DNA from: an uncultured Chloroflexia bacterium
GTDB lineage: Bacteria > Chloroflexota > Limnocylindria > QHBO01
NCBI GenBank assembly: GCA_963704115.1
Contig: CAVPGY010000007.1
Span: 48,658-112,657, forward strand
Reading direction: 5' to 3'
DNA: 64,000 bases
Each line of letters starts with the position of its first letter. The first letter of the stretch is position 1. The translations under genes were made by a program, and so were the position numbers. The notes below the pieces were generated by a model. The model saw nothing but the letters and a program-made list of their open reading frames with translations. It searched no databases and had not been told where the DNA came from. Below, in pieces: positions 10,344 to 61,653 of this stretch.

Positions 10344-12377
10344 TCAGGCCACGCGCTTCGACTTCTTCGAGACGTAGTCGACCAGCACGTACTCGCCGAG
10401 GTGCTCAGGCTCGACGTAGAAGGCGCGGCCGCGGTTCACCCGTGACATCAGGTCGACGAACTCCGAGAGGTAGCGCGACCGCTCGAGCATGAACGTGTTG
10501 ATGACGATCCCCTCACGGGTGCATCGGCCCACTTCGCGAAGCGTGGACTGGACGGTCCGCAGCGTCGGCGGGTACGCGAACTCGACCTGGCCGCCCTCGA
10601 TGTGGGCGGTCGGCTCGCCATCGGTGATGACGACGATCTCCTTGTTGCCGCCGGTGGACCGGCCGAGCAGCTGGCGCGCGATGATCAGCGCGTGCTGGAG
10701 ATTCGTGCCGTACTCGAACTCGTAGGGCGACAGCGTCGGGATCGACTCCGGCTTCAGCTGCCGGGCGTAGTACGCGAAGCCGACGACGTACAGCTTGTCC
10801 CGCGGGTACTTGGTGTGGATGAGCGTGTGGAGGGCCATCGCCACCTTCTTGGCGGCCGATGAGCAGCCGCGCAGCAGCATCGATCGGCTCATGTCGAGCA
10901 GTAGGACGGTGGAGGCGGTCGTGGTCTCCTCGGTGCGGCTCACCTCGAAGTCCCGGGCGCCGATGCGGACCGGCGTCCCCGCTCCGCCGCGTGCCATGGC
11001 ATTGAACAGCGTCCTGTTGATGTCGATGGCGAACGCGTCCCCGAATTCGTAGCGTTTCGTCTCGTCGGTCGGCTCGCCGCCGCGACCCGGCGCCGGAAGC
11101 GCGTGGCCGCCGAAACCCTCGCGCCGCAGCCGGCTGAAGATGTCGGTCAGCGCCCGCATCCCGAGCTTGCGTGCCGCGCGAGGGGTGAGATCCATGCGCC
11201 CGGACTCGCGGTCCAGGTACCCGGCCTCCTCGAGGCTGCGCGTCAGCTCGCGGAGCTGGTCGAGATCCTCGACCGCCTCGTCGCCCGCGAGGTCGCGGAG
11301 CGCATCTGGATCGACGGCCGCGAGTGCATCGGGATCTCGCGCGGCGCCGATGGCCTCCTCCATGGCGTCGTACTGCTGCTGGCGATCGATGGCCGCCAGC
11401 GCGTCGGCCAGGCCCATCGGCTCGTCGCCCTCGAAGGCATACGGCTCGCCGAACGGGAGGTCGGGACGCGCGGCCTGGAGGTTGCCGGCCAGGCGGGCCA
11501 TGTCGATCTTCAGCCGGTCGTCCCGCAGCAGGTCGTCCATGAGGTCGCGCAGCTCGCTGCGCATCTCGGGCGACAGGCTGTTCATGAGGCTGGCCATCTG
11601 CGACGCCTGGCGATGGAGGTGCTCGATCAGCTCATCGGTGGAGGTGATCCCGGGCGGGAAGTAGTGCCCGTGCTGCCCCATGAAGCGCGCGAAGTCCCCC
11701 GTCGTGTCGATGCCGGTGGCGTGCTTCTCGAGCAGGGCGTTGAGGTCGCGCACCATGCCGCGGATGCCGGCGAGGTCCTCGGGCGTCACCTTCTGGACAC
11801 CTTCCTTGAGGCCCTGGAAGTAGGTCTGGAGCATCTGCTGCCGCAGCTCGTCGGTGAGCTCGGTGAAGGCGTCCCGGGCATCGTCGTCCAGGAACTCGTA
11901 CTCGCGCAGGCCATTGAGCCGCCCCGCGAGCGTCTCGGGCAGCGCGTCGAGGCGATCGCTGCGCTGCCGGGTCGTGCGCCGCATGACCTGCTCCGCCATG
12001 CGGGCGTGGTCCTGGTCGTCGCCGGGGGCCGCGTCGAGCGCCCGCTGCTCGGTCTCGTGCATCCGCCGCTCGATCCCGGCACGCTCCTGATCGAGGATCC
12101 TCGCCAGCCGGTCGTTGATCTCGTCGAGCACGCCGTCCAGGTGCGCGCGCTCGAGCTCCTCCTGCCGCCGGGCGCGGAGCCGCTCCGTGATCCGGCGCAG
12201 CCCGGGGATGTCACCACCGCGCGTGCCGCGCAGGCCGCGCTGCATCAACCGCTGGAGGGCGCGGCGCACATCGCCCTCGGCAAGGATGTCGTCCGACAGG
12301 GCATCGAGCACGTCGTCCGCGTCGAAGGCCGGCAGCTGCTGGCTGCCGTCCCATCGGGTGTAGCGGAAGGTGCTCAT
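10344..12377 (-). CDS. VWA domain-containing protein (Rv0959-like)
   Basis: N-term FRYTRWDGSQ; MIDAS motifs LLDMSRSM, GTNLQHAL, ITDGEPT; ATG at 12377. Confidence 0.85.
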   Translation of the reverse strand: MSTFRYTRWDGSQQLPAFDADDVLDALSDDILAEGDVRRALQRLMQRGLRGTRGGDIPGLRRITERLRARRQEELERAHLDGVLDEINDRLARILDQERAGIERRMHETEQRALDAAPGDDQDHARMAEQVMRRTTRQRSDRLDALPETLAGRLNGLREYEFLDDDARDAFTELTDELRQQMLQTYFQGLKEGVQKVTPEDLAGIRGMVRDLNALLEKHATGIDTTGDFARFMGQHGHYFPPGITSTDELIEHLHRQASQMASLMNSLSPEMRSELRDLMDDLLRDDRLKIDMARLAGNLQAARPDLPFGEPYAFEGDEPMGLADALAAIDRQQQYDAMEEAIGAARDPDALAAVDPDALRDLAGDEAVEDLDQLRELTRSLEEAGYLDRESGRMDLTPRAARKLGMRALTDIFSRLRREGFGGHALPAPGRGGEPTDETKRYEFGDAFAIDINRTLFNAMARGGAGTPVRIGARDFEVSRTEETTTASTVLLLDMSRSMLLRGCSSAAKKVAMALHTLIHTKYPRDKLYVVGFAYYARQLKPESIPTLSPYEFEYGTNLQHALIIARQLLGRSTGGNKEIVVITDGEPTAHIEGGQVEFAYPPTLRTVQSTLREVGRCTREGIVINTFMLERSRYLSEFVDLMSRVNRGRAFYVEPEHLGEYVLVDYVSKKSKRVA

Positions 12378-38462: not shown

Positions 38463-38579
38463 GCCCGCGCCACATCGGCCGCGGAGACGGCCGTACGTCA
38501 TTCGCCGCTGGACGGCGCCGTCCATCCGGATATCGTGGCCGGATCAACCGGTGACGCACGATGGCCGGAGGAAACCGCG

Positions 38580-39686
38580 ATGTCGTACCGAGACGAGCCG
38601 TCGGAGTCCACATGCGCCTCGTGTGGCGCCCAGCTGACGCCACGCGCGAGCTATTGCCCCGAGTGTGGCGCCGCTCAACCTCGTACGCGGGTCCCGATGG
38701 CCCCACTGCCGGAGGGTCGCCGATGGGGGGTCCCTGTGGCGATCGGGCTTGGCGCCATCGCGGCACTGCTCGGTGGCGCGCTGATCGGCGTGGCGCTCAT
38801 GGGCTCGCCAGACGGTACGGCCAGCGATCCGTCGCCCACCGCCACGGCGACTGCGTCAGCCGACACCCCGACCGCCGGCCCCAGCCATACCCTGGATCCA
38901 AGCCCTTCGCCGAGCGCGTCGGAAGCCACGGCCGCTGCCCCGATCCCGAATCGTGCCGTCGTCGAGGTGGCGACCGACGGCCTGACCCTTCGCGCGGCCG
39001 CTGCCGACGAATCGGAGTCGTTGCTCACCCTCGAGCGTGGGCGCCGCCTGTTCATCATCGGCGAGCCCAGCGACGGATCGGAGCTGCGCTGGTATCGCGT
39101 CGCCCCGTTCGACGACATCGAGGGCTGCGAGGGCGGCTGCGGACTCATCGGCTTCGTCGCCACCCCGCTCAGCGACGACGAGGAGCCATGGATCGAGCGC
39201 GTCGAGGTCTCCTGCCCCTCATCGCCGACGACCGCGGCCGAGATCGGAGTTCTCGACCCGCTTGAAGCGCTGCACTGCTACGGCCGCAACGAGATCGAGA
39301 TCACCGGCACGCTCGATCTGCCGATCCATGGACCGATCAGCCCGTTCCGCTACTCCCCCGCCTGGCTGACCCAGGGCTCGCTGCTGTTCATGCGCGAAGC
39401 GTGGTGGATCACGTATCGGCCACATCCGGAAGCCGATCTGGAGGAGCCGGAACGCGGCGACGTCGTCAGGGTGACCGGCCACTTCGAGGATCCGGCGGCC
39501 GCCGACTGCCGCGTCACCGTCGACCCGGACTTCTTCGGTGGCGAGATCCCCGACAGCTTCGAGTCGACGGTCATCCCGGCACGTGTGGTGCTCGACTGCC
39601 GAACGGCCTTTGCCTGGACCGACTACGAGGTCATCGGGTTCGAGGACCTCGGTGAGTGCTGCGGCCTACCTAAGCCCTCACCCTGA
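38580..39686 (+). CDS. Membrane-anchored protein: zinc ribbon, TM, S/T/P linker, SH3-like domain, Cys-containing C-terminal domain
   Basis: CASCG...YCPECG; TM GVPVAIGLGAIAALLGG; LTLRAAA...RWYRV; VTGHFEDPAAADCR. Confidence 0.75.
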   Translation: MSYRDEPSESTCASCGAQLTPRASYCPECGAAQPRTRVPMAPLPEGRRWGVPVAIGLGAIAALLGGALIGVALMGSPDGTASDPSPTATATASADTPTAGPSHTLDPSPSPSASEATAAAPIPNRAVVEVATDGLTLRAAAADESESLLTLERGRRLFIIGEPSDGSELRWYRVAPFDDIEGCEGGCGLIGFVATPLSDDEEPWIERVEVSCPSSPTTAAEIGVLDPLEALHCYGRNEIEITGTLDLPIHGPISPFRYSPAWLTQGSLLFMREAWWITYRPHPEADLEEPERGDVVRVTGHFEDPAAADCRVTVDPDFFGGEIPDSFESTVIPARVVLDCRTAFAWTDYEVIGFEDLGECCGLPKPSP

Positions 39687-39974
39687 TCGGCTGTTCGCTG
39701 GGCTTGACACCCCGGCAGCCACTCCAGTGCGCGCATGGCGATGAGCAGCTCAGCGCTCGTCGGACGCTTGCCGCGTCGTGCTGCGCGACAAACGGCCGAC
39801 GCCAATGGCGCCAAGGCGCCCCGTAGGCAACGAAGACGAAGGGGCCCCGGCGCATCCGAGGCCTTTTCCGTGCCATCCGCCACCACTGGCCATCGATCTG
39901 GCATCCGATCTGCATGTTCGGCGGACGTTTTTCTGGCCTTCGAGCCGTTGGCTGCTTACCGAGCAGGGAGACCG

Positions 39975-40688
39975 ATGAACGCCGAGCTTCAGAGTGCACC
40001 CGGACCCGACGCGGATCCGCTCCGCGTCCTGCTGGTCGACAACGACGAGGACATCACGGCCCTCGTCACGGCCATCCTCAACGACGACGGATATGCCGTC
40101 ACCACGCTCAATGACACCGATCACGCATCGGTCGCCGCCGCGGTCGGGCGCGTGGAACCCGACTGCATCCTCCTCGACGGCGCGGAGGGACCCGCCTTCG
40201 GCGGCAGCTGGGGCGAGGCGGCGTACCTGTCGCGCCGGGATCGGCCCGTGCCCGCGGTGATGTTCACCGGGCATGCGCGCGCCGTCACCGAAGCGCGCGA
40301 GCGAGCCAGCGAGCGCGCCCGCGAGGCCGACTTCGCGGCCATCGTGCCCAAGCCGTTCTCACTCGACGAGCTGCTGGACGCCGTCGAGGCGGCCGCCGGT
40401 CGATCGCAGCGGTTCGATCGGTCTGAAGAGGCCGACCGCCGGCGCACGGAGCAGCTGGTGGTGGAGCTCCGGGCCGCCGGCGCCACCGACATCCGCACCA
40501 GCGAGCGACGCGAGTGGGCGACCTTCACCTCACCGCGCGACGATCGCCTCTACCAGGTCTACTGGTGGCAGCGGCAGGGCCGCTACATGCTCGGCCGATA
40601 TGACGACAGAGCCCGGCTCGAGATGGTCGGGGAGTACTTCGAACGCTCCGCGGCGATCTCGGCGGCCCTGCAGACCACGCCCGTCTGA
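39975..40688 (+). CDS. Response regulator receiver with unknown C-terminal domain
   Basis: VLLVDND, PDCILLD, MFTG, VPKPF; about 90 extra residues with no HTH. Confidence 0.8.
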   Translation: MNAELQSAPGPDADPLRVLLVDNDEDITALVTAILNDDGYAVTTLNDTDHASVAAAVGRVEPDCILLDGAEGPAFGGSWGEAAYLSRRDRPVPAVMFTGHARAVTEARERASERAREADFAAIVPKPFSLDELLDAVEAAAGRSQRFDRSEEADRRRTEQLVVELRAAGATDIRTSERREWATFTSPRDDRLYQVYWWQRQGRYMLGRYDDRARLEMVGEYFERSAAISAALQTTPV

Positions 40689-40740
40689 TCTCGCGCCGCC
40701 GGTCCGACCGGCGTCAATGGGGCGCAGCAGCGCGCGTCGA

Positions 40741-41415
40741 TCAGCGCGGCGCGGCAAACCACCCCGACATCGCGGAGACCAGCGCCGGCGGGCCGTCGGC
40801 GGTGACCGACCCGTCGTCGATCGCATCGGTCCAGGACCGCTGACCACGGGCGACCGGCAGGAGGCCGGCGGCTCCGGCCTCCACGTAGACATAGCGCTCG
40901 TCGCCGATCATCGGATCCTCCAGGCAGAGGTTCGGCTCGTGATCGCGGGCCAGGAGGAGCCACGTTCGGTCCGGGCGCGCCTCGCGCAGGTCGATCTCGA
41001 TCGCCACCTGCCGGGCGGGCGCCGCGGTCCGATCGACGCGGTGCCGGAGCCACCACAGGACGACCGACGGATCGCGCTGCGCCATCGCCGGATCCTCCGG
41101 GATCCAGTGCTCGGCCCAGTCCCAGAGCGACTTCATGGTCGGCAGCAGCTGCTCCCCCGCCGGCGTCAGGCAATACGGCGCGGACCGGCCCGGGACCGAT
41201 GGATCTCGCGCCAGCAGCCCGATCTCCTCGAGCTTGCGCAGCCTGGCGGCCAGGACCGATCGCGAGACTCGCCCCGGCAGGCCGGTCGCCAGGGTGTTGA
41301 AGCCCTGCGGACCGAACTGGGCCAGCTCGCGGACGATGAGCAGGCTCCATCGGTCTCCCAGGTGCTCCACCGCCTTGGTGAAGGCGCAGTACTCGGTCTG
41401 CTCGGCTGAGCTCAT
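40741..41415 (-). CDS. HxlR family winged-helix regulator with C-terminal extension
   Basis: YCAFTKAVEHLGDRWSLLIVREL, RSVLAARLRKLEEIGL, YCLTPAG. Confidence 0.85.
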   Translation of the reverse strand: MSSAEQTEYCAFTKAVEHLGDRWSLLIVRELAQFGPQGFNTLATGLPGRVSRSVLAARLRKLEEIGLLARDPSVPGRSAPYCLTPAGEQLLPTMKSLWDWAEHWIPEDPAMAQRDPSVVLWWLRHRVDRTAAPARQVAIEIDLREARPDRTWLLLARDHEPNLCLEDPMIGDERYVYVEAGAAGLLPVARGQRSWTDAIDDGSVTADGPPALVSAMSGWFAAPR

Positions 41416-41531
41416 GGCCGGTGCATTGTCCCACCGTGGGGCGAACGGCGAGCCAGTTCTCGATCCGAACTTCCCGCCGGGGTGGCGCGGCGCGACCATG
41501 GAGGACACCACGCACACATCGGGGAAGCATC

Positions 41532-42648
41532 ATGGACCGCGCTCACGAGACCGTCGTCATCGGCGGCGGACAGTCCGGCCTGGCGGCCGCCCATCACCTG
41601 GCGCGACGCAACGTCGACGCGGTGGTGCTCGAGGCCAGCGATCGCATCGGTGATCTCTGGCGCTCGCGGTGGGACTCGCTGCGCCTCTACAGCCCGGCGA
41701 AGTACGACTCCCTGCCGGGCATGCGCATGGGCATGCCGGGCCATTCGGTTCCCGAGTGCTCGCGAGATGGGCGACTACCTCGAGACCTACGCCGATGCCC
41801 AGCAGCTGCCGATCCGCACCGGCGTGGCCGTCACGCGCGTGCGAGCCGATGGCGACGGGTACGCGGTGGAGACCAACGAGGGCACCGTCGCCGCGCACCA
41901 GGTGATCGTGGCGACCGGTGGCTTCCAGCACCCGTACGTCCCGCAGGCGGCCCACGACCTGGATCCCGGTGTCCGCCAGATCCACTCGGTCAACTACCGC
42001 CGCCCCGACCAGCTCGCCGACGGAGCGGTCCTCGTGGTCGGGTTGAGCCACTCCGGCGCCGATATCGCCCGCGAGGCGGCCCTCGCCGGCCACCGCACGA
42101 TCGTGGCGGGCACGTCCCATGGCCAGCTTCCCTTCCCGGTGGACAGCCGGCGGGCACGCCTGGCCTGGCCGGTCCTCCGATTCGTGGCCTCGAACGTGCT
42201 CACGCTGCGGACGCCGATCGGCCGCAAGATGGCGCCCATGGTCCGGCTCGGCGGCGGGCCCCTGCTGCGGTATCGGCGGCAGGAGCTGCTCGAGGCCGGC
42301 GTGGAGCTGCGTGCTTCTCGCTTCACCGGGGCCCGTGACGGCCGCCCGCTGCTGGCCGACGACTCGGTCCACGACGTCGCGACGGTGGTGTGGTGCACCG
42401 GCTTCCGCCCGGACTTCGGGTGGGTCGAGCCGGCAACCGTCGACGAGCGCGGCTGGCCCATCCAGGAGCGCGGCGCGGCCGCTGGCGCGCCGGGGCTCTA
42501 CTTCCTGGGCATCCCGTTCCTGTTCGGCTTCACATCGATGCTCGTGCTCGGGGCCGATCGCGACGCCGCCTTCGTCGCCGATGCCGTCGCGCGCCGAGTC
42601 GTGTCCGACGGTCATCCGCTCGCCGGCGCCCCGCAGCGGGCCGCCTGA
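41532..42648 (+). CDS. Flavin-containing monooxygenase-like oxidoreductase, frameshift near 41750
   Basis: GGGQSGLAA, WRSRWDSLRLYSP in one frame; FPSAREMGDYLETYA, IVATG, VWCTGFRPD in the next. Confidence 0.8.
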
Positions 42649-42697
42649 CGTGCAGGTTGCGCCGCCCTGGGCTGGTGGCCCGCGGGCCTCGTCCACC

Positions 42698-42836
42698 GCA
42701 GTTATCCGCCCGGGTATCCAACAGCCGCCGAGCGGTCGCTGGCCGTCCCCGCGTTACCGGCAGCGGTATCGGGCGAACTCTGATCACGGCCGACTTCCTG
42801 CGCCGATCGCCGTTGGTTACCCGGGCGGGTAACCGC
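42698..42836 (-). repeat. 139-bp element E1 (reverse orientation, divergent subfamily C)
   Basis: Reverse complement reads GCGGTTAC-N7-GGTAACCAAC...GATACC (offset 66)...GTTGGATACC-N6-GATAACTGC. Confidence 0.8.
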
Positions 42837-42849
42837 AGGGGCGGAGTGA

Positions 42850-43695
42850 TCAGCGGAGCCGATAGACCTCGATCGGCCGCTCCATGCCCTTGAGCTCCAT
42901 GGGGCCCTGGCTCTCGAACGCGAGGCCGCTCCCATCGGCCAGGCCGACGGTCATGACCGAGGCGAAGACCTCCGAAGGGCCGGCGAGAGCCATGATCCGA
43001 GCGGCCGCGTGCACCGCCACGCCGCCGATGTCGTCGCCGATCGGCTCCACCTCCCCGGTGTGGACGCCGATGCGCACGGCGACCTGGGTGTCACGCACCG
43101 CTTCGATGATGGCTGCGGCGCAGCGCAGTCCCGCCACCGCGCTGCGGAAGGTGGCGAGGAAGCCATCGCCCGTCGTGTTGACCTCGGCCCCGCCGAAGCG
43201 GCGCAGCTGCGCGCGGACGAGGCGGTTGTGATCGGAGAGCACCTGCTTCCAGGCGGCGTCGCCGAGCCGGTGGGCGGTCGGGGTCGAGTCGACGATATCG
43301 GTCATCAGCAGGGTGGTGACGATGCGCTCGTGCTCGCGGGGCAGGCCCAGCGTGTCGATGTTGCCCGCGAAGTCGATCAGCACCGCCGGCTCGTCACCGA
43401 CGACCCAGGCATCGTGGCCCGGTGGGACGTCCATCACGTCGCCGGGCTCGAAGGTCATCTCCTCACCGTCGTCCATGCGCACCGCGAAGCGCCCCGAGAG
43501 CAGGATCTGGACGTGGTGCACCGGGCAGGATTCGGCTCGCATGGTCGGCCCCAGGTGCTCCGTCCAGCGCCAGCCGGGCTGCACCACGCCACGACCGATC
43601 GTGTTCGCCCCGATCCGCGCAAGCTGGACCGTGAGCAGCGGCAGCTCGCGCAGGCCATCGGGGTCGCCAAAGTTCCGTCGCCGGATTGCACCCAT
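42850..43695 (-). CDS. Cupin domain fused to class III nucleotide cyclase domain
   Basis: QPGWRW...HHVQILLSG...PPGHDAWVVG cupin; LMTDIVDST, TTGDGFLA, RIGVHTGE, GVAVHAAARI cyclase. Confidence 0.85.
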   Translation of the reverse strand: MGAIRRRNFGDPDGLRELPLLTVQLARIGANTIGRGVVQPGWRWTEHLGPTMRAESCPVHHVQILLSGRFAVRMDDGEEMTFEPGDVMDVPPGHDAWVVGDEPAVLIDFAGNIDTLGLPREHERIVTTLLMTDIVDSTPTAHRLGDAAWKQVLSDHNRLVRAQLRRFGGAEVNTTGDGFLATFRSAVAGLRCAAAIIEAVRDTQVAVRIGVHTGEVEPIGDDIGGVAVHAAARIMALAGPSEVFASVMTVGLADGSGLAFESQGPMELKGMERPIEVYRLR

Positions 43696-43747
43696 CGGTC
43701 CATGGTGACGCCCCCGCGCAAGGCCGGCGCGCCCCACGACGCACCGC

Positions 43748-43886
43748 CGCGTTTCGCGCCGTGGTATCCAACTGACACTGAGCGCTATCCGGGTTTGCCC
43801 GCGTTATCCGCAGTGGTGGCGCGGGGCGCCTGAATGGCCCTCACTGCCTTGCTCGCCCGCCGTTGGTCGTCAGCACGGGTAACCGG
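43748..43886 (-). repeat. 139-bp element E2 (reverse orientation, most degenerate)
   Basis: Same length and box offsets as E1; keeps GGTTAC, CCAAC, GATAACGCGG and GTTGGATACC on the minus strand. Confidence 0.65.
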
Positions 43887-45208: not shown

Positions 45209-45347
45209 GCGGTTACTCGCCTCGGTATCCAATGGACCCCGAACCCCGGGGACGCCCCGCTTCCGACGCCGCCTGATACCCATGCCGGTACCCACCGGCC
45301 GTTCGGTCACGCCTCACCCGCCGATGGATACCCGTGCCGGTAACCGC
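45209..45347 (+). repeat. 139-bp element E3 (subfamily A)
   Basis: GCGGTTAC-N7-GGTATCCAA...GATACC...GGTACC...GATGGATACC...GGTAACCGC. Confidence 0.9.
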
Positions 45348-45390: not shown

Positions 45391-48300
45391 TCAGTTGCGG
45401 ACCGGCTGCCTCGCGTCGTCGGAGGCGGCCACCGGCTCCCCGTCCCTGGCGGTCATCGCTCGCTCCAGCAGGGCCAGCAGCGGCGCGGCCCCCAGCCGAT
45501 CGAAGAGCGCCCGTGCATCATCGGCAGCGGCACGGGCCTGCGGATCGGCCGGACCCACCATCGACACCCAGTCGACCGCGCACCAGCCTACCTCGACGTG
45601 GTGCCCGAGCTCGCGCCAGCGAGTGATCGCATCGGCGAACCCGGCGGTCGCGTCGGCGCGTCGGCCCTCCATCGCGGCGAGAGCCGCCTCGGCCTCGCGT
45701 CGGGCCGCTGCCGGAAGGCGTCCGGGCTTGTCACGGAAGTGATCGATCGCGCTCGTGAGCGCCGAGGCGTCTCCTCCCCAGGCCGCCGCGCGCGCGGCGA
45801 TCTGGAACGTGGTGGTGTCGGGAGCGCTACCGGCCTCGTACGCGCGGCGAGCCAGCGCGAGCGCCTCTGCGAAGTCACCCCTGGCCAGGGCGACGAGCGC
45901 CTCTGCCTCGTCCAGGGTGGCGAACACCTGGAGCTCGGTCGTGTCCCCGACCCTCTGCCGCACGGCGGCAAAGTCGGCCGCCACGTCCTCGCCGCGGAGC
46001 CCGCGGAACTCCGCGAGCCGGAACCGGGCCGAGGACTCTCCCAGCCCTGACAGCTCCTCCTCGAGCGCGCTGACCGCCCACTCCCACTCGCCATTCGAGA
46101 GGGCGAACGCCGCGGCGTTGCCGAGCATGTAATCCCCGTAGCCGGCCATCCCGTAGCGGCGCACCAGCTCGACCCCCTCTCTGGCCACGTCGAACGCCAT
46201 CCGCGGATCCTCGGCCGCGGCCGAGTAGCTGAGGTTGATGCGGGCGCGCAGTCCCACGTCGACCAGCCCGTAGGACGTGGCCGACGCCACCGCGCCGACC
46301 AGCGTGGTGACCGACTCGCGAATGCGTCCCGCCGCTGCCAGGCATGGACCACGGGTGACAAGGAGCTGGATCGTCTCACGGTTGAGCTCCAGCCGTTCCG
46401 CCGTGGGCAGGATCTCGTCCACGATCCGCATCGCGTCGGTGCCACGTCCCTGCAGCATCGTGGACCGGGCGAGCTCGGCGGCGAGCCGGACGTACTCGAC
46501 GGTGTCCTCGAGGTCGCGGTACTCCCGGTGTGCCGGCTCGAGCATGGCGATCGACTCGACCACCTTGCCCTGGACCGCGATCGCGAGCGCGTGGTCGTCG
46601 AATCGCCGACATGAGGAGGCGCCGATCGCCGCCTGCCCTGGCCAGCTCGAGCGCACGCTCGGTGTGCGCCGTCGTCTCGTCGACGAGCCCCGCGAAGAGT
46701 CCGGCGTCGCCGGCCGCCGCGTGGAGCTGGCGCTGCTCGTCGGGATCGGTCGTGACCTCCAGCGCACTCTCCAGGAACCGCATGGCCTGCACGAACGATC
46801 CGAGCGAGCGCGCCCGGTCGGCGGCCCCGCGGAGCGCGACGCGCGCCTGCGCCGCCACCGCGTCGCCCTCCGGCCCTTCGGGGTGGGCCCGGTACGCCGC
46901 CAGGTAGTGCTCGGCCAGCGCTCCGGCGATGCCCTCATCGTCGAGCGTCTCGTAGTGGCGCGCCGCCGCCAGGTGGAGCCGCCGTCGATCGGCGCGTGCG
47001 AGCGTGCCGTACGCGACCTCGCGGATCAACGCCTGGACGAACGTGAACTGCCCACGCTCTGGCGAACGAGGATCGACCTCGAGCGACAGCAGCTCGCGGC
47101 GCACGAGGTGGCGCAGCCGAGCGGCGATCGCCTCCGTGTCCTGGCCCGTCAGCGCCGCCAGCTCGTCGATGCTGAAGGTCTTGCCGACGATCGATGCCGC
47201 CTGGAGCAGTGACCGATCCTCCGCCTCCAGCGCGTCGAGGCGCGAAGCGATGAGCGCGTGGAGCGACGCCGGGACCGACAGCTCCGACAGGTCGCCGGTC
47301 GGTCGATAGACCCCATCGTCGAGCGACACGTGCCCCTCGCTCAGGAGCATGCGCACCGTCTCGACGGCATAGAGCGGAATACCCTCCGCACGCTCCAGGA
47401 CGCGCTCCACGACCGGGTCCGGCAGGCCCGGCACGAGGCCGGCGAGCAGCTCGCGCATCGATTCGGCGTCGAGCGGCTCGAGCACGAGCGAGGTGAAGTT
47501 GCGCCGGCCGGCGCCCCAATCGGCACGGCGATCGAGCAGCTCGGGGCGCGCCAGGCTGATCAGGTAGATCGGCCGGTCGCGCGACCACTCGAGGATGTGA
47601 TCGATGAAGTCGAGCAGGCCGCCATCGGCCCATTGGAGATCCTCGAACACCAGCACCACCACGCCCTGCTCGGCGATGCGCTCGAAGAAAACGCGCCACG
47701 CGGCGAACAGCGACTCGCGATCCGGGCGCGTGCCGGCGTCGGACGACTCGAGGCCCAGCAGCTGGAGCATGCGCGGCTCCATCCAGGCGCGTTCGGCCTC
47801 GTCGGGCACCCAGGTTGCGAGTGCTGTCGCCAGCTTCGCTCGTGCGGTGGCGGGGGCATCGGCCTCGGTGATCTCCGCCCGACCGCGCACCATCTCGGCC
47901 AGCGCCCAGAAGCTGATGCCCTCGCCGTACGCCGGCGAGCGGCCCTGGTGCCAGTAGACGACCTCGGTCACGCCGTCGAGGTACTTCTGGAACTCCCAGA
48001 CCAGCCGGCTCTTGCCGATGCCACCCTGCCCGATGATCGAGACGAGGCGCGGGCGTCGCTCGGCGGCGGTGGCGGCATGGAAGTCCTTGAGCATGCGCAG
48101 CTCGGCGGCGCGGCCCACGAACGGCGCCTCCAGCTGCTCGCTGCGTCCGGCCCCGCCCCGGCGCGCCACCACGCGCAGGGCGCGGTAGGCAGGCACCGGG
48201 GCCTGCTTGCCCTTGAGCAGCTGCTCGCCGGCCGGCTCGAAGGCGACCGCGCCGCTCGCCGCGTGGAAGGTCGACTCGCCCACCAGCACCGATCCCGGCG

Positions 48301-48913
48301 GCGCCACCGACTGCAGCCGGCTGGCCGTGTTGACGAGGTCGCCGGCGACCATGCCCTGGTTCGGTGGCACCCAGCGTGACGGCCGCCTCGCCGGTGAGCA
48401 CGCCGGCACGCAGCGTCAGCTCCGCCCCGATCTCGGTGCCGATCGCCCGCACGACCTCCACCAGGTCGAGCCCGCTGCGCACCGCCCGCTCCGCATCGTC
48501 CTCGTAGGCGATCGGCGCGCCCCAGACCGCCATGACCGCGTCACCGATGAACTTCTCGACGGTTCCGCCGTAGGCTGCCGATGATCTGGTTCGCCGTCTC
48601 GAAGTACCGGCCGAGCAGCTCTCGCACGGCTCTCGGGGTCCCGCGACTCCGACAGCGTGGTGAACCCCACCAGGTCCGCGAACAGCACCGAGACGAGGCG
48701 CCGCTCCGCGGTCGGTGCCGGGATCGATGCCGCTGGGGTGGACGCGGGTGCGGCGGCGGTCGCTCCAAGGGCTGAGCCACATTGGCCGCAGAACTTCACG
48801 CCGGGGGCGTTCGCCGCGCCGCACGACGGACATGACGCGGCCAGGCTCGCTCCACACTCGCCACAGAACCGCCGATCCGGCTCGTTCGGCGTCGCGCATG
48901 CCGGACAGATCAC
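45391..48913 (-). CDS. Second zinc ribbon/cyclase/AAA/TPR protein, multiply frameshifted
   Basis: [54 protein letters not shown] across at least 4 frames; paralog of 16631-20152. Confidence 0.8.
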
Positions 48914-53069: not shown

Positions 53070-53725
53070 CGCAGGGCGCGCAGAGGCCACACGAAGGCCG
53101 CCGCTCGCAGGCCGCGCTCGCGCTCACGGCGGCCGGCCTCGGGATCCTGGCCGGGATCGCCGCCAAGCTCGCCGACGAGTCGGGGATCGGGTGGCTCAGC
53201 GACCTCGGCACCTTCGCGGCCATCTGGGTCCTGGTGATGGTCGTCATCGGCTGGACGGCACCGACGCTCACGGCTGCGGCCCTTCGCGCGGGACTGTTCT
53301 TCGTCGGACTCAGCCTCGCCTACTACGCGTTCTCCACCTTCGTGCTCGGTTACCCGGGCGGGGCGCTGGTGCAGCGCTGGGCGATCCTGGCGGTCACAGC
53401 GGTTCCGCTGGTGGCCGCGGCGACGTGGTGGGCGTCGCGACACCGGGGGCCGCTGCCGGCCGTCGTTCTGGGGCTGGTCGCCGCGATCGCGCTCATTGAT
53501 GGCAATGTGCTGCCGTTCTGGTACGCCGTCATCGGCGATCCGCTTCCGGCCGAGTTCCCCTATCGGCCGATCCAGGCGGTCGTCGAGATCGGCACCGCAT
53601 CCGTCATCGCCGGTCTCGTTCCGCGCAACTGGGCGACACGGGCGATGGCGCTGGTCGTCGTCGTCCCCGCGCTGTGGCTCGTGCCGGAGCTCGTGTCGAT
53701 CGCGATGCGCCTCGTGGCATTCTGA
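53066..53725 (+). CDS. Membrane protein (DUF6518-like)
   Basis: About 6 TM helices, LAYY motif; start uncertain (CTG overlapping the upstream stop, or a frameshift). Confidence 0.55.
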   Translation: MTQGAQRPHEGRRSQAALALTAAGLGILAGIAAKLADESGIGWLSDLGTFAAIWVLVMVVIGWTAPTLTAAALRAGLFFVGLSLAYYAFSTFVLGYPGGALVQRWAILAVTAVPLVAAATWWASRHRGPLPAVVLGLVAAIALIDGNVLPFWYAVIGDPLPAEFPYRPIQAVVEIGTASVIAGLVPRNWATRAMALVVVVPALWLVPELVSIAMRLVAF

Positions 53726-53811
53726 GTTCCGGCTGGCGCGGCATTTTCGGCACGTGCGGCTCGCCGCCGAACCACGGTCCTCCCGGGGCCCGCGGGTATA
53801 GGCTGAATGCG

Positions 53812-54180
53812 ATGACGCTCAGCCGATCTCGAGCGGCCCGCTACGCCCGACGGCGCAGGCGCCGCATGCAGCGCGTCGAGCACGATCTGAGCCCGGACCA
53901 GTGGGCCGCCCTGCAGGCGGCGTGGGGCGGCTGCGCCTACTGCGGCGCGACCGACGTGCCGCTCCAGCGCGACTGCGTGCTGCCGATCTCGCGAGGCGGG
54001 CGCTACACGCTCGACAACATCGCCCCGGCGTGTGGCTCCTGCAACGCGAGCAAGGGCAACCAGGAGGTCACGCGCTGGATGCGCCGCCATCGGCTCGACG
54101 AGCCGGCCTTCCTCCGGCGCCACCTCGCGATCTCCACCACGCTCGCCGCTGGCGACCTGGGGATTCCACCGCAGGAGTGA
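53812..54180 (+). CDS. HNH endonuclease-fold protein with DH replaced by DC
   Basis: CAYCG...QRDCVLPISRGG...NIAPACGSCNASK. Confidence 0.85.
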   Translation: MTLSRSRAARYARRRRRRMQRVEHDLSPDQWAALQAAWGGCAYCGATDVPLQRDCVLPISRGGRYTLDNIAPACGSCNASKGNQEVTRWMRRHRLDEPAFLRRHLAISTTLAAGDLGIPPQE

Positions 54181-54191
54181 CCTGGTGGCGC

Positions 54192-54233
54192 TGGCGACCG
54201 CTGACGGCAGGCGGGCACCTGGGGCCGTCTCGC
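54192..54233 (+). repeat. 42-bp direct repeat, copy 1
   Basis: 36/42 identical to 54499-54540. Confidence 0.8.
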
Positions 54234-54244
54234 TGGGCACCCCG

Positions 54245-54383
54245 GCGGTTACTCGCCCGGGTATCCAACTGACGGGTTCGGGCCGGTTCGCCCTACCTCA
54301 GCGGTCCGCCGATACCGGTGCCGATACCCCGCGACGCCCGAAGTGCTCGCCGTTCGCCGATGGATACCAATGCGGATAACCGC
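54245..54383 (+). repeat. 139-bp element E4 (subfamily B)
   Basis: GCGGTTACTCGCCCGGGTATCCAACTGAC...GATACCGGTGCCGATACC...GATGGATACC...GATAACCGC. Confidence 0.9.
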
Positions 54384-54498
54384 GGCTTCCGGGCGCGGCC
54401 AGGGGCTCACCGTCACCGGCGCCTCATCTGCCAGCTCCAGTTCGTGCTGACGGGCGTCGAGGCCGGCTAGACCAGCTCCGGGCGACGCACTGGCCGCG

Positions 54499-54540
54499 TG
54501 GCGACCATTGACAGCAGGTGGACACTTGGGGCCGTCTCGC
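54499..54540 (+). repeat. 42-bp direct repeat, copy 2 (possible promoter of the FG-GAP gene)
   Basis: TTGAC...CGTCT, ending 31 bp before the ATG at 54572. Confidence 0.75.
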
Positions 54541-54571
54541 GTCGTCGACGCGTACAGGAGGGGGCACCTCC

Positions 54572-56174
54572 ATGACCCGAGCCTCGAGCATCGCAGTCGC
54601 GGTCGCGCTGGCCTTGAGCGGTTGCGGAGCCACGGAGTCGACGCCCACCGGGTCGCCGACGCCCACGCAGACTCCCCCATCGTCCACTCCGTCGGCATCC
54701 ACCGCCGCATCGGCCGAACCGAGCCACGGGGAGCAGGCGCCGTCGGAATTCGCGGGAGCGTGGGAGGACGTCACACCATCGGAGCTGTCGGCGGCCGGCG
54801 CCTGGACGAACAAGCTCGAGCTGGCGGACCTGGACCTCGACGGCGACGTGGACATCCTGTTCGCGAACGGCGGTGACTACCAGAGCCCCGGTGAGCCGGT
54901 CGCCAGCGGGGCCTGGCGCAACAACGGCGACGGCACCTTCGTGGACGCCACCACCGAGATCCTGGGCGAGCACGCCCTCCTCACCCGCGTCATCAAGGTC
55001 GCGGACCTCAACGGCGACACCTTCCCCGATATCCTCATGGGCACGACGTACGACACCCAGAGCCGGCTCCTCCTCGGCTCCCCGGCCGGCACCTGGGCCG
55101 ATGTGACCGATACCCACCTGCCCGCCGCCGAGCTGAGCATCGGCGACCTCGAGTTCGGCGATGTCGATGCCGATGGCGACCTGGACGTGGCCATCGCCGA
55201 CTGGGGCGACAACGGCCCGATCAACGACCGCGGCGGCCGCACCGCGCTGTGGCTCAACGATGGGTCCGGCGTCTTCGCCGACGCGACCGATGCGCAGATG
55301 CCCGAGACGCTGGTGGGCTTCAGCTGGGACATCGAGGTCGTCGACGTCGACAACGACTGGGACCTCGATCTCGCCATCTCGTGCAAGCTCTGCCCGTCGA
55401 GCCTCCTGTTCGAGAACGACGGCACCGGCACCTTCGCCGATGTCACCGAAGGACGCTTGCCGGCGTTCACGAACAACTACGAGTTCGCGCCGATCGATCT
55501 CGACGGCGACGGGTTCCTGGACCTGGTGACGATCAACGACGGGGCGGACACGGGGAGCGGAGTCACCGAGCACGTGTTCCGCAACGACGGCGCGGGCAGC
55601 TTCGAGGACGCAACCGCCGAGTGGTGGCCGGCCGATGCGAACCTCGGCTGGGACGACAACGTCGTCGTGGCGATCGACATCGAGTCGGACGGTGACGCCG
55701 ACTTCGTCATCGGGTCGCTGGATGGTGCCGATCGGCTGCTCGTCAACGACGGGTCCGGCCGGCTGTCGGTGGTGCTCGACGCCTTCGTCGGGGAACCGAG
55801 CTCCGGGACGCTCGACCTGGCGATCGCGGACCTGAACGGCGACGGGCGGCCGGACCTGGTCGAGGCGCAGGGCGAGGTTGCCGAGGACGAGCGGATCTAC
55901 CTCGCCACCGAGGTGCTCGCCCCCGACACTGCCGCGCCGATCATCCGAGGGGAAATGGGACCGCGTCAGACGGTGCTCGCCCGCGTGCACGACAACCTCA
56001 CCCCGAACACCTCCCTGCGCTGGCAATCGATTGTGGCGCGATGGTCCGGCGGCGAGGTCCCGATGACCTGGTATGGCGAGCACCTCTTCCGGGTGACAGC
56101 TGCCCGACGGTGCGACGCTGACCGAGATCTGCGCGGTCGACGTCGCGGGCAACGAGACCTGCCTTCCCGGCTGA
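54572..56174 (+). CDS. FG-GAP/VCBS repeat lipoprotein, frameshift near 56100
   Basis: Lipobox ALSGC; repeated D-x-D-x-D-G-D-x-D motifs; shifted tail reads ...ICAVDVAGNETCLPG stop. Confidence 0.85.
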
Positions 56175-56223
56175 TGCCCCTCAGACCGTGGCCGATGCGG
56201 ACCATGCGCCCGCCGGCCCGCCC

Positions 56224-56363
56224 GCGGTTACTCGCCCGGGTATCCAACTGACCGGTCGGGGCTGGATCGGCCTGTCTCAGCGGTCCGCCGATACCGGTGC
56301 CGATACCCGGCGGCGTCCGAAGTGCGTGGCCGTTCGCCGATGGATACCGGTGCGAGTAACCGC
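56224..56363 (+). repeat. 140-bp element E5 (subfamily B)
   Basis: 25-bp terminal inverted repeat with 22/25 matches; same boxes as E4. Confidence 0.9.
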
Positions 56364-56474
56364 AGTTCGAGGGACCCGATACCGCGGCGTCCACGACGAT
56401 GAGCGCCGAGCCGCCAGCGGCCGCGTGAAAGCGACCCGCACAGAGGGCTGGCGTCGGCGTGCGAGGATGGGTGC

Positions 56475-57221
56475 ATGGCACTCCACGTCGAGCGCGCCGG
56501 CGAGGCCGGGCCGGCGGTCGTCCTCGTTCACGGTTCCGGGGCGCCCGGCTGGGGCGCGTGGGAGGCGGTCCGCCCGCTGGCGGAGCACTATCGGCTCGTC
56601 GTCCCCCACCGCAGCGGCTTCCCGCCGAATCCGCCGCTGGAGCGGATCGACTTCGAGGTGCAGGCCGATGAGATCGCCGCGCTGGTCGAGCCCGGCGCGC
56701 ACCTCGTCGGGCACTCGTACGGCGGGGTGGTCGCGCTCCTGGCGGCGGCGCGCACGGGCGACCGGCTCCGCTCACTGACCGTGATCGAGCCGCCGGCACT
56801 CGGGGTGGCGCGCGGCGACCCGGCGATCGAGCAGTTCATCGACGCCGTCGACGAGGCATCGGCCGTCGAGGGCACCCCGCGCGATCGGCTCGTGGCCTTT
56901 CTGCGGGTGGTCGGGTCGACCTCCGAGGTTCCCGACCCGCTGCCGCCGGGATTCGAGGCGATCACCCGGGCCAACGACGCCCAGCGACCGCCGCAGGAGG
57001 CGGAGATCCCGTTCGAGGCGATCCGGGCGACCGGCGTGCCGGTCCTCGTCGTGACCGGAGGGCACCTCATGGCCTACGACGTCATCGCGGAGGTGCTCGA
57101 GCGGGAGCTGCACGCGGAGCGCGCGATCCTTCCCGGCGCGGGGCACTCGGTCCAGCGGCTCGGCTCGCCCTTCAACGATCGGCTTGCCACCTTCGTCGAC
57201 ACGGCCGATCAGCGCGCCTGA
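56475..57221 (+). CDS. Alpha/beta hydrolase
   Basis: VLVHG, nucleophile elbow GHSYGG, PGAGH. Confidence 0.88.
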   Translation: MALHVERAGEAGPAVVLVHGSGAPGWGAWEAVRPLAEHYRLVVPHRSGFPPNPPLERIDFEVQADEIAALVEPGAHLVGHSYGGVVALLAAARTGDRLRSLTVIEPPALGVARGDPAIEQFIDAVDEASAVEGTPRDRLVAFLRVVGSTSEVPDPLPPGFEAITRANDAQRPPQEAEIPFEAIRATGVPVLVVTGGHLMAYDVIAEVLERELHAERAILPGAGHSVQRLGSPFNDRLATFVDTADQRA

Positions 57222-57268
57222 GGCTTGACCGCCCCCGGCGGCCCTTGGACCCGGGCGAGCGTGCGCAT

Positions 57269-57407
57269 GCGGTTACTCGCGCGGGTATCCAACTGACGGG
57301 TTGGGGCCGGATCGGCACGTCTCAGCGGTCCGCCGATACCGGTGCCGATACCCAGCGGCTGCCGAAGTCCGCGCCATTCGCCGATGGATACCAGCGCCGG
57401 TAACCGC
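57269..57407 (+). repeat. 139-bp element E6 (subfamily B)
   Basis: Same boxes and offsets as E4/E5. Confidence 0.9.
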
Positions 57408-57567
57408 GGCGCCGCGGGCAAGCGGCGCTCGGCCGGATGACGTAGCGGGGTCGCCCGAATGACCCGCCAGGGTCCGTGGCGCATGTCCGTGGGCGCCGGG
57501 GTTGCCAGCCCCGACGATCCACGTGCACATCCACCAGACATCCGCCACACCTTGGAGCCCAACCACC

Positions 57568-58974
57568 ATGGAATCGGTCCTGGCCCCCGAAGGCCGCAAC
57601 GACACCCCCGCCGACTTCACTCAGCTCGCCGCCACCCTGACGGGCACGGTCCTGACCCCCGACGCCGACGGCTACGAGGCCGCGCGGAGCGTCTGGAACC
57701 TCTACTACAACGATGCGCGGCCCGCCGCCGTCGTCCAGGCGGCAGACGCCAACGACGTCGCCCGGGCGATCGCCTTCGGCCGGGAGTTCGGGCTGGAGAT
57801 CGCGGTCCGCAGCGGCGGACACTCGATGGCCGGCTTCTCGACCGGCGATGGCGTGCTGGTCATCGACCTGCGCACGATCCGTGGCCTCCACATCGACCCG
57901 GAGACGCGCCTCGTATCGGCCGGTGCCGGCCTCAACGCCGGCGAGATCACCACGGCGCTCGTGCCGCACGAGCTCGCCATCCCGTTCGGCGACACCGCGA
58001 GCGTCGGGATCGCCGGGCTGACGCTGGGCGGTGGCATCGGCTACCTGGCCCGCAAGGCCGGCCTGGCCATCGATCGGCTGCGGAGCGTCGAGCTCGTCAC
58101 GGTCGACGGTGAGGTGCTCACCGCATCGGCCGACGAGCATGCCGACCTGTTCTGGGGCATTCGCGGCGGCGGCGGCAACTTCGGCGTCGTGACGCGCTTC
58201 GTGTACGAGGCGGTGCCGGTGGCCGAGACGCTGTCCGGCGCGCTCGTTCTGCCGCTCAGCGCCGAGGTCCTCTCCGGCGCCCTGGCGATCGCCGACGAGG
58301 CGCCCGAGGAGACGACCAGCATCTTCGAGATCATGGCCGCCCCGCCGGCGCCGTTCATCCCGGAGGACAAGGTCGGCACCCCGATCCTGACGATCCTCAT
58401 GGTCCACGCCGGTGATCCGGCCGACGGCCAGGCCGTGGCCGATCGGTTCCGGGCCCTGGCAACACCGATCGCCGACCTCGTGGCGCCGATGCCGTACGGC
58501 GGGATCTACCAGTTCTCCGCCGAGGCCGAGAACCCGATGCCGGCCGTGACCCGCTCGCTGTTCACGCGCGAGCTCCTGGGCCCCGAGGCCGTCGAACGGG
58601 TCGTGGCGCGCATGACCGATCCCGACGGACCGATGGTCGCGGTCAGCCAGGTCCGCGTCCTGGGCGGCGCGATGGGTCGCGTCCCGGCCGATGCCACCGC
58701 ATTCGCCCACCGCGACGCGAAGATCATGGTGACCCTCTACACGATCTTCGTCGACCCGGACAAGACGGCATCGGACATCGCCTGGACCCACGCCTACTTC
58801 GAGGAGCTGGCGCCGTTCGCCAGCGGGGTCTACGTGAACTTCCTCGACCTCGAGGGCGCGGCGCGCGTCCGCGACGCGTATCCATCGGCCACCTACGCGC
58901 GGCTGGCGGACCTCAAGACCCGATGGGATCCGGAGAACGTCCTCCGCCGCAACCAGAACGTGCGGCCCGCCTGA
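57568..58974 (+). CDS. FAD-binding oxidoreductase (berberine bridge enzyme-like)
   Basis: VRSGGHS, GIAGLTLGGG, FWGIRGGGGNFGVVT, YVNF, LKTRWDPENV. Confidence 0.9.
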   Translation: MESVLAPEGRNDTPADFTQLAATLTGTVLTPDADGYEAARSVWNLYYNDARPAAVVQAADANDVARAIAFGREFGLEIAVRSGGHSMAGFSTGDGVLVIDLRTIRGLHIDPETRLVSAGAGLNAGEITTALVPHELAIPFGDTASVGIAGLTLGGGIGYLARKAGLAIDRLRSVELVTVDGEVLTASADEHADLFWGIRGGGGNFGVVTRFVYEAVPVAETLSGALVLPLSAEVLSGALAIADEAPEETTSIFEIMAAPPAPFIPEDKVGTPILTILMVHAGDPADGQAVADRFRALATPIADLVAPMPYGGIYQFSAEAENPMPAVTRSLFTRELLGPEAVERVVARMTDPDGPMVAVSQVRVLGGAMGRVPADATAFAHRDAKIMVTLYTIFVDPDKTASDIAWTHAYFEELAPFASGVYVNFLDLEGAARVRDAYPSATYARLADLKTRWDPENVLRRNQNVRPA

Positions 58975-59018
58975 GGGCGGGTCGCACCCCGGCCGGGTGG
59001 TTCCGGGGTCCGACCAGG

Positions 59019-59157
59019 CCGGTTACCCGCCTCGGTATCCAACGGACCCCGAACCCGCGGAATCCCGACCTCCAGGCGCCGTCTGATACCGGGGCCGGTA
59101 CCCACCGGCCGCCCGGCCACGCCTCAACCGCCGATGGGTACCCGCGCCGGTAACCGC
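59019..59157 (+). repeat. 139-bp element E7 (subfamily A)
   Basis: Closely similar to E3 and E8; same offsets. Confidence 0.9.
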
Positions 59158-61514: not shown

Positions 61515-61653
61515 GGGGTTACCCGCCTCGGTATCCAACGGACCCCGAACCCCCGGAATCCCCGCCCTCGGGCGCCGTCTGATACCCAAGCCGATACCCA
61601 CCGGCTGCCCAGTCACGCCTCAACCGCCGATGGATACCCGCGCCGGTAACCGC
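61515..61653 (+). repeat. 139-bp element E8 (subfamily A)
   Basis: Same boxes and offsets; shares upstream flank GGCCGGGTGGT..ACCAGG with E7. Confidence 0.9.

Follow-up and report, generated by a model that had tools for sequence, protein, structure and literature searches.

Integron recombination sites share the core consensus RYYYAAC/GTTRRRY. Clusters of attC sites that lack an integrase are known as CALINs (Cury et al. 2016, PMC4889954). Other described systems are the RAYT-mobilised REP/BIME and REPIN elements and the ERIC/Correia-type MITEs, small transposable elements with inverted repeats (PMC3184786, PMC10969869, PMC3733652), the pdif modules of Acinetobacter plasmids (PMC6449649, PMC13141974), and the res sites of Tn3-family/serine resolvases. 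Here, we analyzed a stretch of 64,000 nucleotides (nt) from an uncultured Chloroflexia bacterium (assembly GCA_963704115.1, contig CAVPGY010000007.1, positions 48,658 to 112,657), referred to as the window. It contains eight copies of a palindromic element, E, four of which (E4-E7) separate genes for an FG-GAP/VCBS-repeat lipoprotein, an alpha/beta hydrolase and a FAD oxidase. The explanation that we tentatively place first is that E is a resident junction repeat, copied or homogenised locally, which lies outside the mobile unit.

E has something in common with each of these systems. As in sedentary chromosomal integrons and CALINs, co-oriented imperfect palindromes of 100-140 nt lie between mostly single, unrelated accessory genes, the sites are alike within a host, and a conserved chromosomal position carries variable cargo. 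Like the REP and MITE elements, E is intergenic, palindromic and clustered, often lies just past stop codons, has species-specific variants and local tandem copies, and shows presence/absence polymorphism with empty sites. As with pdif modules, modular accessory genes have inverted recombinase-type core sites at their two ends, one supplied by the right module of an E copy and the other by the left module of the following copy, and only host Xer recombinases are available. The likeness to res sites consists of three dimer-type subsites within ~120-140 bp, and direct repeats would lead to deletion.

The copies of E were detected by repeat finding and alignment of the window, and the coordinates of E1-E8 (Table 1) are covariance model calls. 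All eight copies are on the plus strand (p = 0.008 for a single orientation), are 139-140 nt long, and score 76-134 bits (nhmmer and covariance model). The arms, of 25 nt each, are inverted copies of one another and read GCGGTTAC-N8-GTATCCAAC on the left and GATGGATAC-N8-GTAACCGC on the right. A third, internal module has the same type of half-site (GATACC-N6-GRTACC). The arm pattern gave 10 matches in the window (70% G+C) vs 1.2 expected. A preliminary description of this DNA had stated that four direct sites separate three unrelated plus-strand genes, and that E4-E6 form one subfamily (B) and E3, E7 and E8 another (A). Both statements hold. The coordinates, orientation and genes were all confirmed; identity is 83-85% among E4, E5 and E6, 77-84% among E3, E7 and E8, and 58-66% between the groups, and a tree built from all 28 copies of the genome places the two in separate clades. 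Perfect stretches of 33-35 nt are common to E4, E5 and E6. Mosaic (hybrid-site) analysis of E3-E8 gave signals of only 1-3 informative positions. A pair of 42-nt direct repeats (54192-54233 and 54499-54540, 86% alike) brackets E4 together with 113 nt; the pair is unique in the genome and absent from the closest relative, G061.

The relation of E to the three genes was followed in other genomes, which are denoted by G numbers (G000 is the own assembly), with C for contigs; L151-L153 are contigs from the Joint Genome Institute (JGI). On the sequences compared, the three genes are discrete modules with sharp ends, not a fixed operon, and E does not accompany them. The preliminary description had considered a fixed operon in relatives lacking the sites; a DNA search of 40 same-genus genomes revealed no case in which the three genes are syntenic, and the best homologue of each was found in a different genome and place. 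The FG-GAP gene is 82% identical at the nt level in G061, where it stands beside the HNH homologue and two other genes replace E4; the adjacency of the HNH and FG-GAP genes is ancestral. In G061, the FG-GAP stop is followed by 570 nt and then by a cyclase gene 90% identical to that at C7:118481 of the own genome. Compared with G061, the own genome has ~13.5 kb extra, which begins directly behind the stop codon of the FG-GAP gene (~48 nt short of E5) and ends inside a SnoaL-like gene remnant, not at E. The best hydrolase homologue among the congeners is in G010 (74% identical), and the oxidase is 78% identical at the nt level in G016, between two genes that are adjacent on the own contig C11.

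Closer matches were found on the JGI contigs. L151 (1203 nt) carries the hydrolase at ~94% nt identity over window positions 56443-57246 only, with unrelated flanks and without E, and a soil-metagenome X1 contig breaks at 56446, the same point as the edge of the hydrolase module. The oxidase is 88% identical at the nt level on L152 and L153, from 57429 to the stop codon, and its flanks are unrelated in all three contexts. The homology of the modules ends sharply, 20-81 nt from the edges of E. The preliminary description had proposed to look for homologs of the cargo that carry the same flanking site in different neighbourhoods; the hydrolase and the oxidase do occur in other neighbourhoods, and there they lack E. 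What varies from genome to genome is therefore the gene alone and not the gene with its site. In this E is unlike integrons and CALINs, in which the site travels with the cassette; no module was seen in two E contexts, which is also unlike pdif. The motif GTATATCAG(C/G)GTATATAC was noted 3' of the hydrolase on L151 (~960-990) and 3' of the oxidase on L152 (~11555-11580).

Table 1. Positions of the genes and of the copies of element E in the window.
Feature	Position	Strand	Remarks
E1	42698..42836	+	between convergent FMO-like and cyclase genes
E2	43748..43886	+	5' side of cyclase gene
E3	45209..45347	+	subfamily A; alignment, covariance model, tree
HNH endonuclease-domain gene	53674..54180	+	upstream of E4; Pfam HNH; 83% nt identity to G061
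E4	54245..54383	+	139 nt, subfamily B; covariance model 127.8 bits, alignment, tree
FG-GAP/VCBS-repeat lipoprotein gene	54572..56174	+	probable start; Pfam FG-GAP_3 1.4e-39; lipobox LSGC
E5	56224..56363	+	140 nt, subfamily B; starts ~48-49 nt past FG-GAP stop
Hydrolase module	56443..57246	+	33-nt leader, alpha/beta hydrolase open reading frame (ORF) 56475-57221, 25-nt trailer; Pfam Abhydrolase_6
E6	57269..57407	+	139 nt, B body and A-like right end; 47 nt past hydrolase stop
FAD oxidase module	57429..58974	+	~73-nt leader and FAD_binding_4/BBE ORF 57502-58974; Pfam
E7	59019..59157	+	139 nt, subfamily A; 44 nt past oxidase stop
E8	61515..61653	+	subfamily A; alignment, covariance model, tree

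E is also gained or lost by itself, as an insertion or deletion. Four singleton loci between conserved core genes were compared, the flanks of which are kept in 14 relatives at 75-91% identity. The gap between the cupin and cysteine-desulfurase genes holds E in the own genome only and measures 3-55 nt in G003, G081, G082, G061 and G016. Between meaB and hbd, E is present in the own genome, two relatives (G019 and G002) have an empty gap, and the others have unrelated small genes and no E. Across the congeners, this gap (G000:C11:64255) contains 0, ~0.5, ~1.0 or ~1.4 kb of unrelated small genes and is thus a hot spot of single-gene insertion without E. In 14 of 14 relatives, ispH and der are separated by a glycosyltransferase-like gene of ~430 aa; it is missing in the own assembly (G000:C2:583600-583900), which has only E at this place. 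Deletion of this gene between two copies of E was rejected, since there is no second E. In G002, the region after ispH (L115, G002:C16:81150-83150) has a tandem array of another ~50-nt repeat (GAACCGTCCGAATTCCCGCCAGGTGAGCGTTATCG...).

The own assembly (2.66 Mb, 13 contigs, ~70% complete) contains ~28 full and 5 partial copies of E. They are strongly clustered: 16 of the 28 (57%) fall within 1% of the assembly (p = 5e-25), in the window array and at C7:295-304 kb. Copies of E are only ~64% alike overall, and the spacers within the modules are not conserved from copy to copy. The most similar copies are neighbours, and the second cluster contains near-identical tandem E-E pairs 10-28 nt apart, together with partial copies. 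The exact core pattern of E is absent from 60 relatives. A search of 185,579 species genomes for the exact pattern returned a single contig, 95% identical to the own C1/C9, and metagenome contigs gave one unrelated E-like copy. With the covariance model, full-length relatives of 138-139 nt were detected in 21 of 63 same-genus genomes, while the other 42 scored none, and no match was obtained in any other of 43 genera of the class. As far as the model detects it, E is a family restricted to one genus. Its half-sites differ among congeners (GGTATCC, GGTAACC, GGCAACC), those of G081 and G003 being GTTTACC-N6-GGTAACCAAC. We found no described repeat family that matches E.

The search for an enzyme that could act on E gave the following results. 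The best match to the integron integrase model (TIGR02249) in the own genome reached 71 bits vs a cut-off of 265, and none of the 63 genus genomes had an integrase above this cut-off, so that E is unlike integrons and CALINs with respect to IntI and a canonical integron was rejected. No serine recombinase (PF00239) was detected in the own genome, G081, G003, G009, G017 or G084, all of which are rich in E; in this E is unlike res sites, and a res/resolvase site was rejected. The Y1/RAYT transposase (PF01797) was detected in none of 15 genomes, with positive controls. A REP-RAYT system was therefore rejected; unlike REP/REPIN, E also lacks the GTAG/CGTC head. Self-BLAST revealed no multi-copy insertion sequence (IS) or coding repeat in the own assembly, only strain-variant contig duplicates, and a parent IS was rejected. 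Two Xer-like (XerC/XerD-like) tyrosine recombinases were found in each genome of the 63-congener survey. The geometry of the E modules (7 nt, 6-8 nt, 7 nt) is compatible with Xer sites. No convincing host dif site was found. Unlike pdif, the modules of E have no match to the dif consensus, their half-sites vary among congeners, and E forms 139-nt composite units on the chromosome.

Four results favour the view of E as a resident repeat: its copies come and go on their own, modules move in its absence, no enzyme was found, and neighbouring copies are the most alike. On this view, each of the three genes would be an independent accessory module with a short leader of its own, within an island that is old and flexible. 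The B-type copies E4-E6 may have arisen locally, either because a neighbour was copied, with its orientation kept, into the intergenic gaps next to it, or because neighbouring copies converted one another, and the flanking A-type copies E3, E7 and E8 would represent the older local type. Insertion of a block with B sites, one of the two origins named in the preliminary description, may equally account for E4-E6. Turnover of the genes in the island would proceed by recombination that ends near copies of E and not inside them.

The preliminary description had also suggested that recombination between direct sites would excise single genes. One part of this claim stands: because of the perfect stretches common to E4, E5 and E6, deletion between direct B copies is physically possible, and ordinary homologous recombination of the RecA type would suffice for the loss of a single gene. 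The other part does not, as no recombinase accompanies the sites and no dedicated site-specific enzyme is evident. A read or contig joining E4 directly to E6 or E7, which had been proposed as a check, was not found in the read evidence, consisting of low-depth contigs of a 95-97% identical relative only. One low-depth X1 contig joins 59053 (left part of E7) to 57379 (right arm of E6), which is the junction expected of a circle or a tandem duplication of the oxidase unit. We treated it as a repeat artefact because one side is 33 nt long, both sides are repeats, and the likeness is 88%.

A number of observations weigh against a simple resident repeat. E has the terminal inverted repeats (25-nt arms) and the insertion polymorphism with empty sites that are typical of MITEs, but no target-site duplication, which is a MITE feature, was found at 27 copies, and no parent transposon was found in the ~70%-complete assembly. 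Unlike the REP and MITE elements, E is 139 nt long, has three phased dyad modules and keeps an invariant length at ~64% likeness. In 26 of 27 copies the two cores lie 108-110 nt apart, though the interiors are ~50% identical. The placement is regular, seven of the eight window copies starting 36-63 nt past the upstream stop codon. An E-type element follows ispH in the own genome, G009, G082 and G036, with lineage-specific half-sites, and its presence in four genomes indicates that this copy is old. Copies in conserved positions beside the gene for class II ribonucleotide reductase likewise have species-specific half-sites. Fixed length combined with species-specific half-sites at conserved positions argues for constraint rather than decay.

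The organisation of the arrays points the same way. The second cluster of the own genome and the arrays of G081:C7 and G003:C11 all start beside the reductase gene (83-92% aa identity), all their E copies are co-oriented relative to it, and their cargo is almost wholly different. The left anchor of the window array (14.1-37.6 kb) is syntenic with G081:C8, the continuation of which holds six copies of E. Anchors are thus conserved in three species with near-total turnover of the cargo. Co-orientation within each array examined (8/8, 8/8, 6/6 and 7/7), another difference from REP and MITE elements, is not what simple insertion would predict. The last of these observations concerns L152 (JGI Ga0493925_00039), a contig of a sister lineage that is 81-85% identical to window positions 38479-43723 and carries the oxidase module without E. 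Between 3834 and 13922, a palindrome of ~50 nt that is unrelated to E, named F (AACTGTCAGCGATTATGTCGTTTGTGATATATCGGCTGACAGTTG), is present seven times, always in one orientation. Four of the copies fill exactly the gaps of E1, E2, E6 and E7, so that the cyclase and oxidase genes flanked by E in the window are flanked by F on L152. Cores resembling F were detected in 10 of the 63 congeners, at 1-4 per genome, and are absent from the own genome.

Such arrays could alternatively be a gene-cassette system without an integrase, in which single-gene modules are inserted and excised by recombination at E, or at F in the case of the sister lineage. E would then consist of two inverted core-type sites (half-site, 6-8-nt spacer, half-site) 109 bp apart and an accessory site, on which the host Xer-like recombinases or an unrecognised enzyme would act. 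The sites would be homogenised lineage by lineage, as in sedentary chromosomal integrons, and the B block would record successive insertions at a B-type site. We regard this as possible, though less probable than a resident repeat. The co-oriented arrays at two conserved anchors in the own genome, G081 and G003, with their cargo replaced, agree with it, and so do the clustering of E, the end of module homology close to E, and the module geometry, which resembles tyrosine-recombinase core sites. The bracketing of the same genes by E and by F in four of four comparable gaps also favours cassettes. In G081 and G003, a gene of ~250 aa is flanked by E on either side, and its fragment occupies the same spot in the own genome, where it likewise lies between E copies, next to another ORF of 366 aa.

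Inner half-sites ATCCAAC...GTTGGAT, which fit RYYYAAC/GTTRRRY, are present in 15 of 27 copies (alignment A2), inside a further conserved half-site. The copies E3-E8 read GATGGAT instead, however, and unlike in integrons and CALINs the AAC/GTT boxes are internal to the outer half-site, a third module lies inside E, and its length is strictly fixed. In addition to the absence of IntI, serine recombinase and RAYT in the genomes searched for each, the variation of half-sites among congeners is hard to square with a conserved XerCD/dif pair, and the spacers of the modules are not conserved between copies. Cassettes also accord poorly with the presence of modules elsewhere without E, with the 13.5-kb difference from G061, one end of which is not at E, with the tandem E-E pairs and the solo copies in core gaps, and with the lack of junction reads. 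Other arrays are less regular than that of the window: units comprise 1-8 genes on either strand, and the orientation of E is not tied to that of the genes. The arrays differ from integrons and CALINs in that genes lie on both strands, units can contain several genes and sites occur as tandem pairs.

The fixed 139-nt length and module spacing despite variable interiors, and the persistence of E at orthologous positions (after ispH and beside the reductase gene) with lineage-specific half-sites, would also suit an element that serves the host at the boundaries of genes. Here, E would be a pad made of three phased dyad sites, recognised by a lineage-specific DNA-binding protein or folded in the transcript, that insulates, terminates or stabilises transcription units, mainly of accessory genes, and F would be its analogue in the sister lineage, which accords with the different element held by the same gaps of L152. 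E is placed 14-63 nt past stop codons in most tandem and convergent contexts, but ~5 of 22 copies lie between divergent genes, a promoter region being among these places. RNAalifold gave only an invariant 8-bp stem, GGTATCCA/TGGATACC, with 0 compensatory pairs within the genome, the Rfam scan of window positions 41-64 kb gave no match, and a structured RNA was rejected. No U-tract terminators were found at E, and no candidate binding protein was identified. Replication-strand bias was rejected as an explanation of orientation, the GC skew being weak and unrelated to that of E. Considering also that 42 of 63 congeners have no model-scored copy and that many orthologous gaps are empty, we judge a boundary function improbable; it ranks below cassettes, which in turn rank below the resident repeat.

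The co-orientation of E within arrays, the conserved anchors, the fixed architecture and the coincidence of E and F slots favour junction sites with a role in, or a constraint from, the organisation of the island.

The genes around both arrays are ordinary accessory genes for cyclases, STAND ATPases, glyoxalases, hydrolases and an MFS transporter. In several genomes, copies of E repeatedly have adenylate/guanylate cyclase and AAA_16 (STAND-type) genes as neighbours (window 42850-43803 and 46376-48409; G000:C1:7686-8630; C7:113837-119374; L089:12341-13828). The FG-GAP ORF as called spans 54518-56251, and its start is probably the ATG at 54572. The conserved C-terminus (...NETCLPG and stop) matches that of G061 in another frame only. 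Because the C-terminus fits the relatives only in that frame, the true stop should be at 56172-56174, and the frame shift near 56095 is a probable sequencing frameshift. An 8.7-kb segment containing panC, panB, an S58 peptidase, an amylase, a luciferase-like gene, E and a cyclase occurs twice in the own assembly, at contig ends (G000:C1:1-8660 and C9:1-8660, 98% identical), and again on G065:C61 (95% identical) of an otherwise unrelated metagenome-assembled genome, which suggests strain duplication or mis-binning. One copy of E (G000:C2:199961-200105) seems to lie inside one continuous coding region, possibly a Y-family polymerase accessory gene.

Should E be no more than a selfish or structural repeat, the family would still be a clean one, apparently undescribed so far, in an abundant uncultured soil lineage, distinguished by three phased modules, fixed length and lineage-specific half-sites. 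A bolder proposal, which we consider rather doubtful, is that soil Limnocylindria-like Chloroflexota may run an integron-like cassette system without an integron integrase, in which the housekeeping Xer pair or an unrecognised enzyme swaps single-gene modules at lineage-homogenised palindromic sites (E and F) in conserved docking regions. The replacement of E by F in identical gaps offers a concrete, testable contrast between the readings. Should the arrays be recombination platforms, they would demonstrate that the shuffling of genes as cassettes can evolve in the absence of an integron integrase, and gene-capture systems of environmental bacteria could then be sought more widely.

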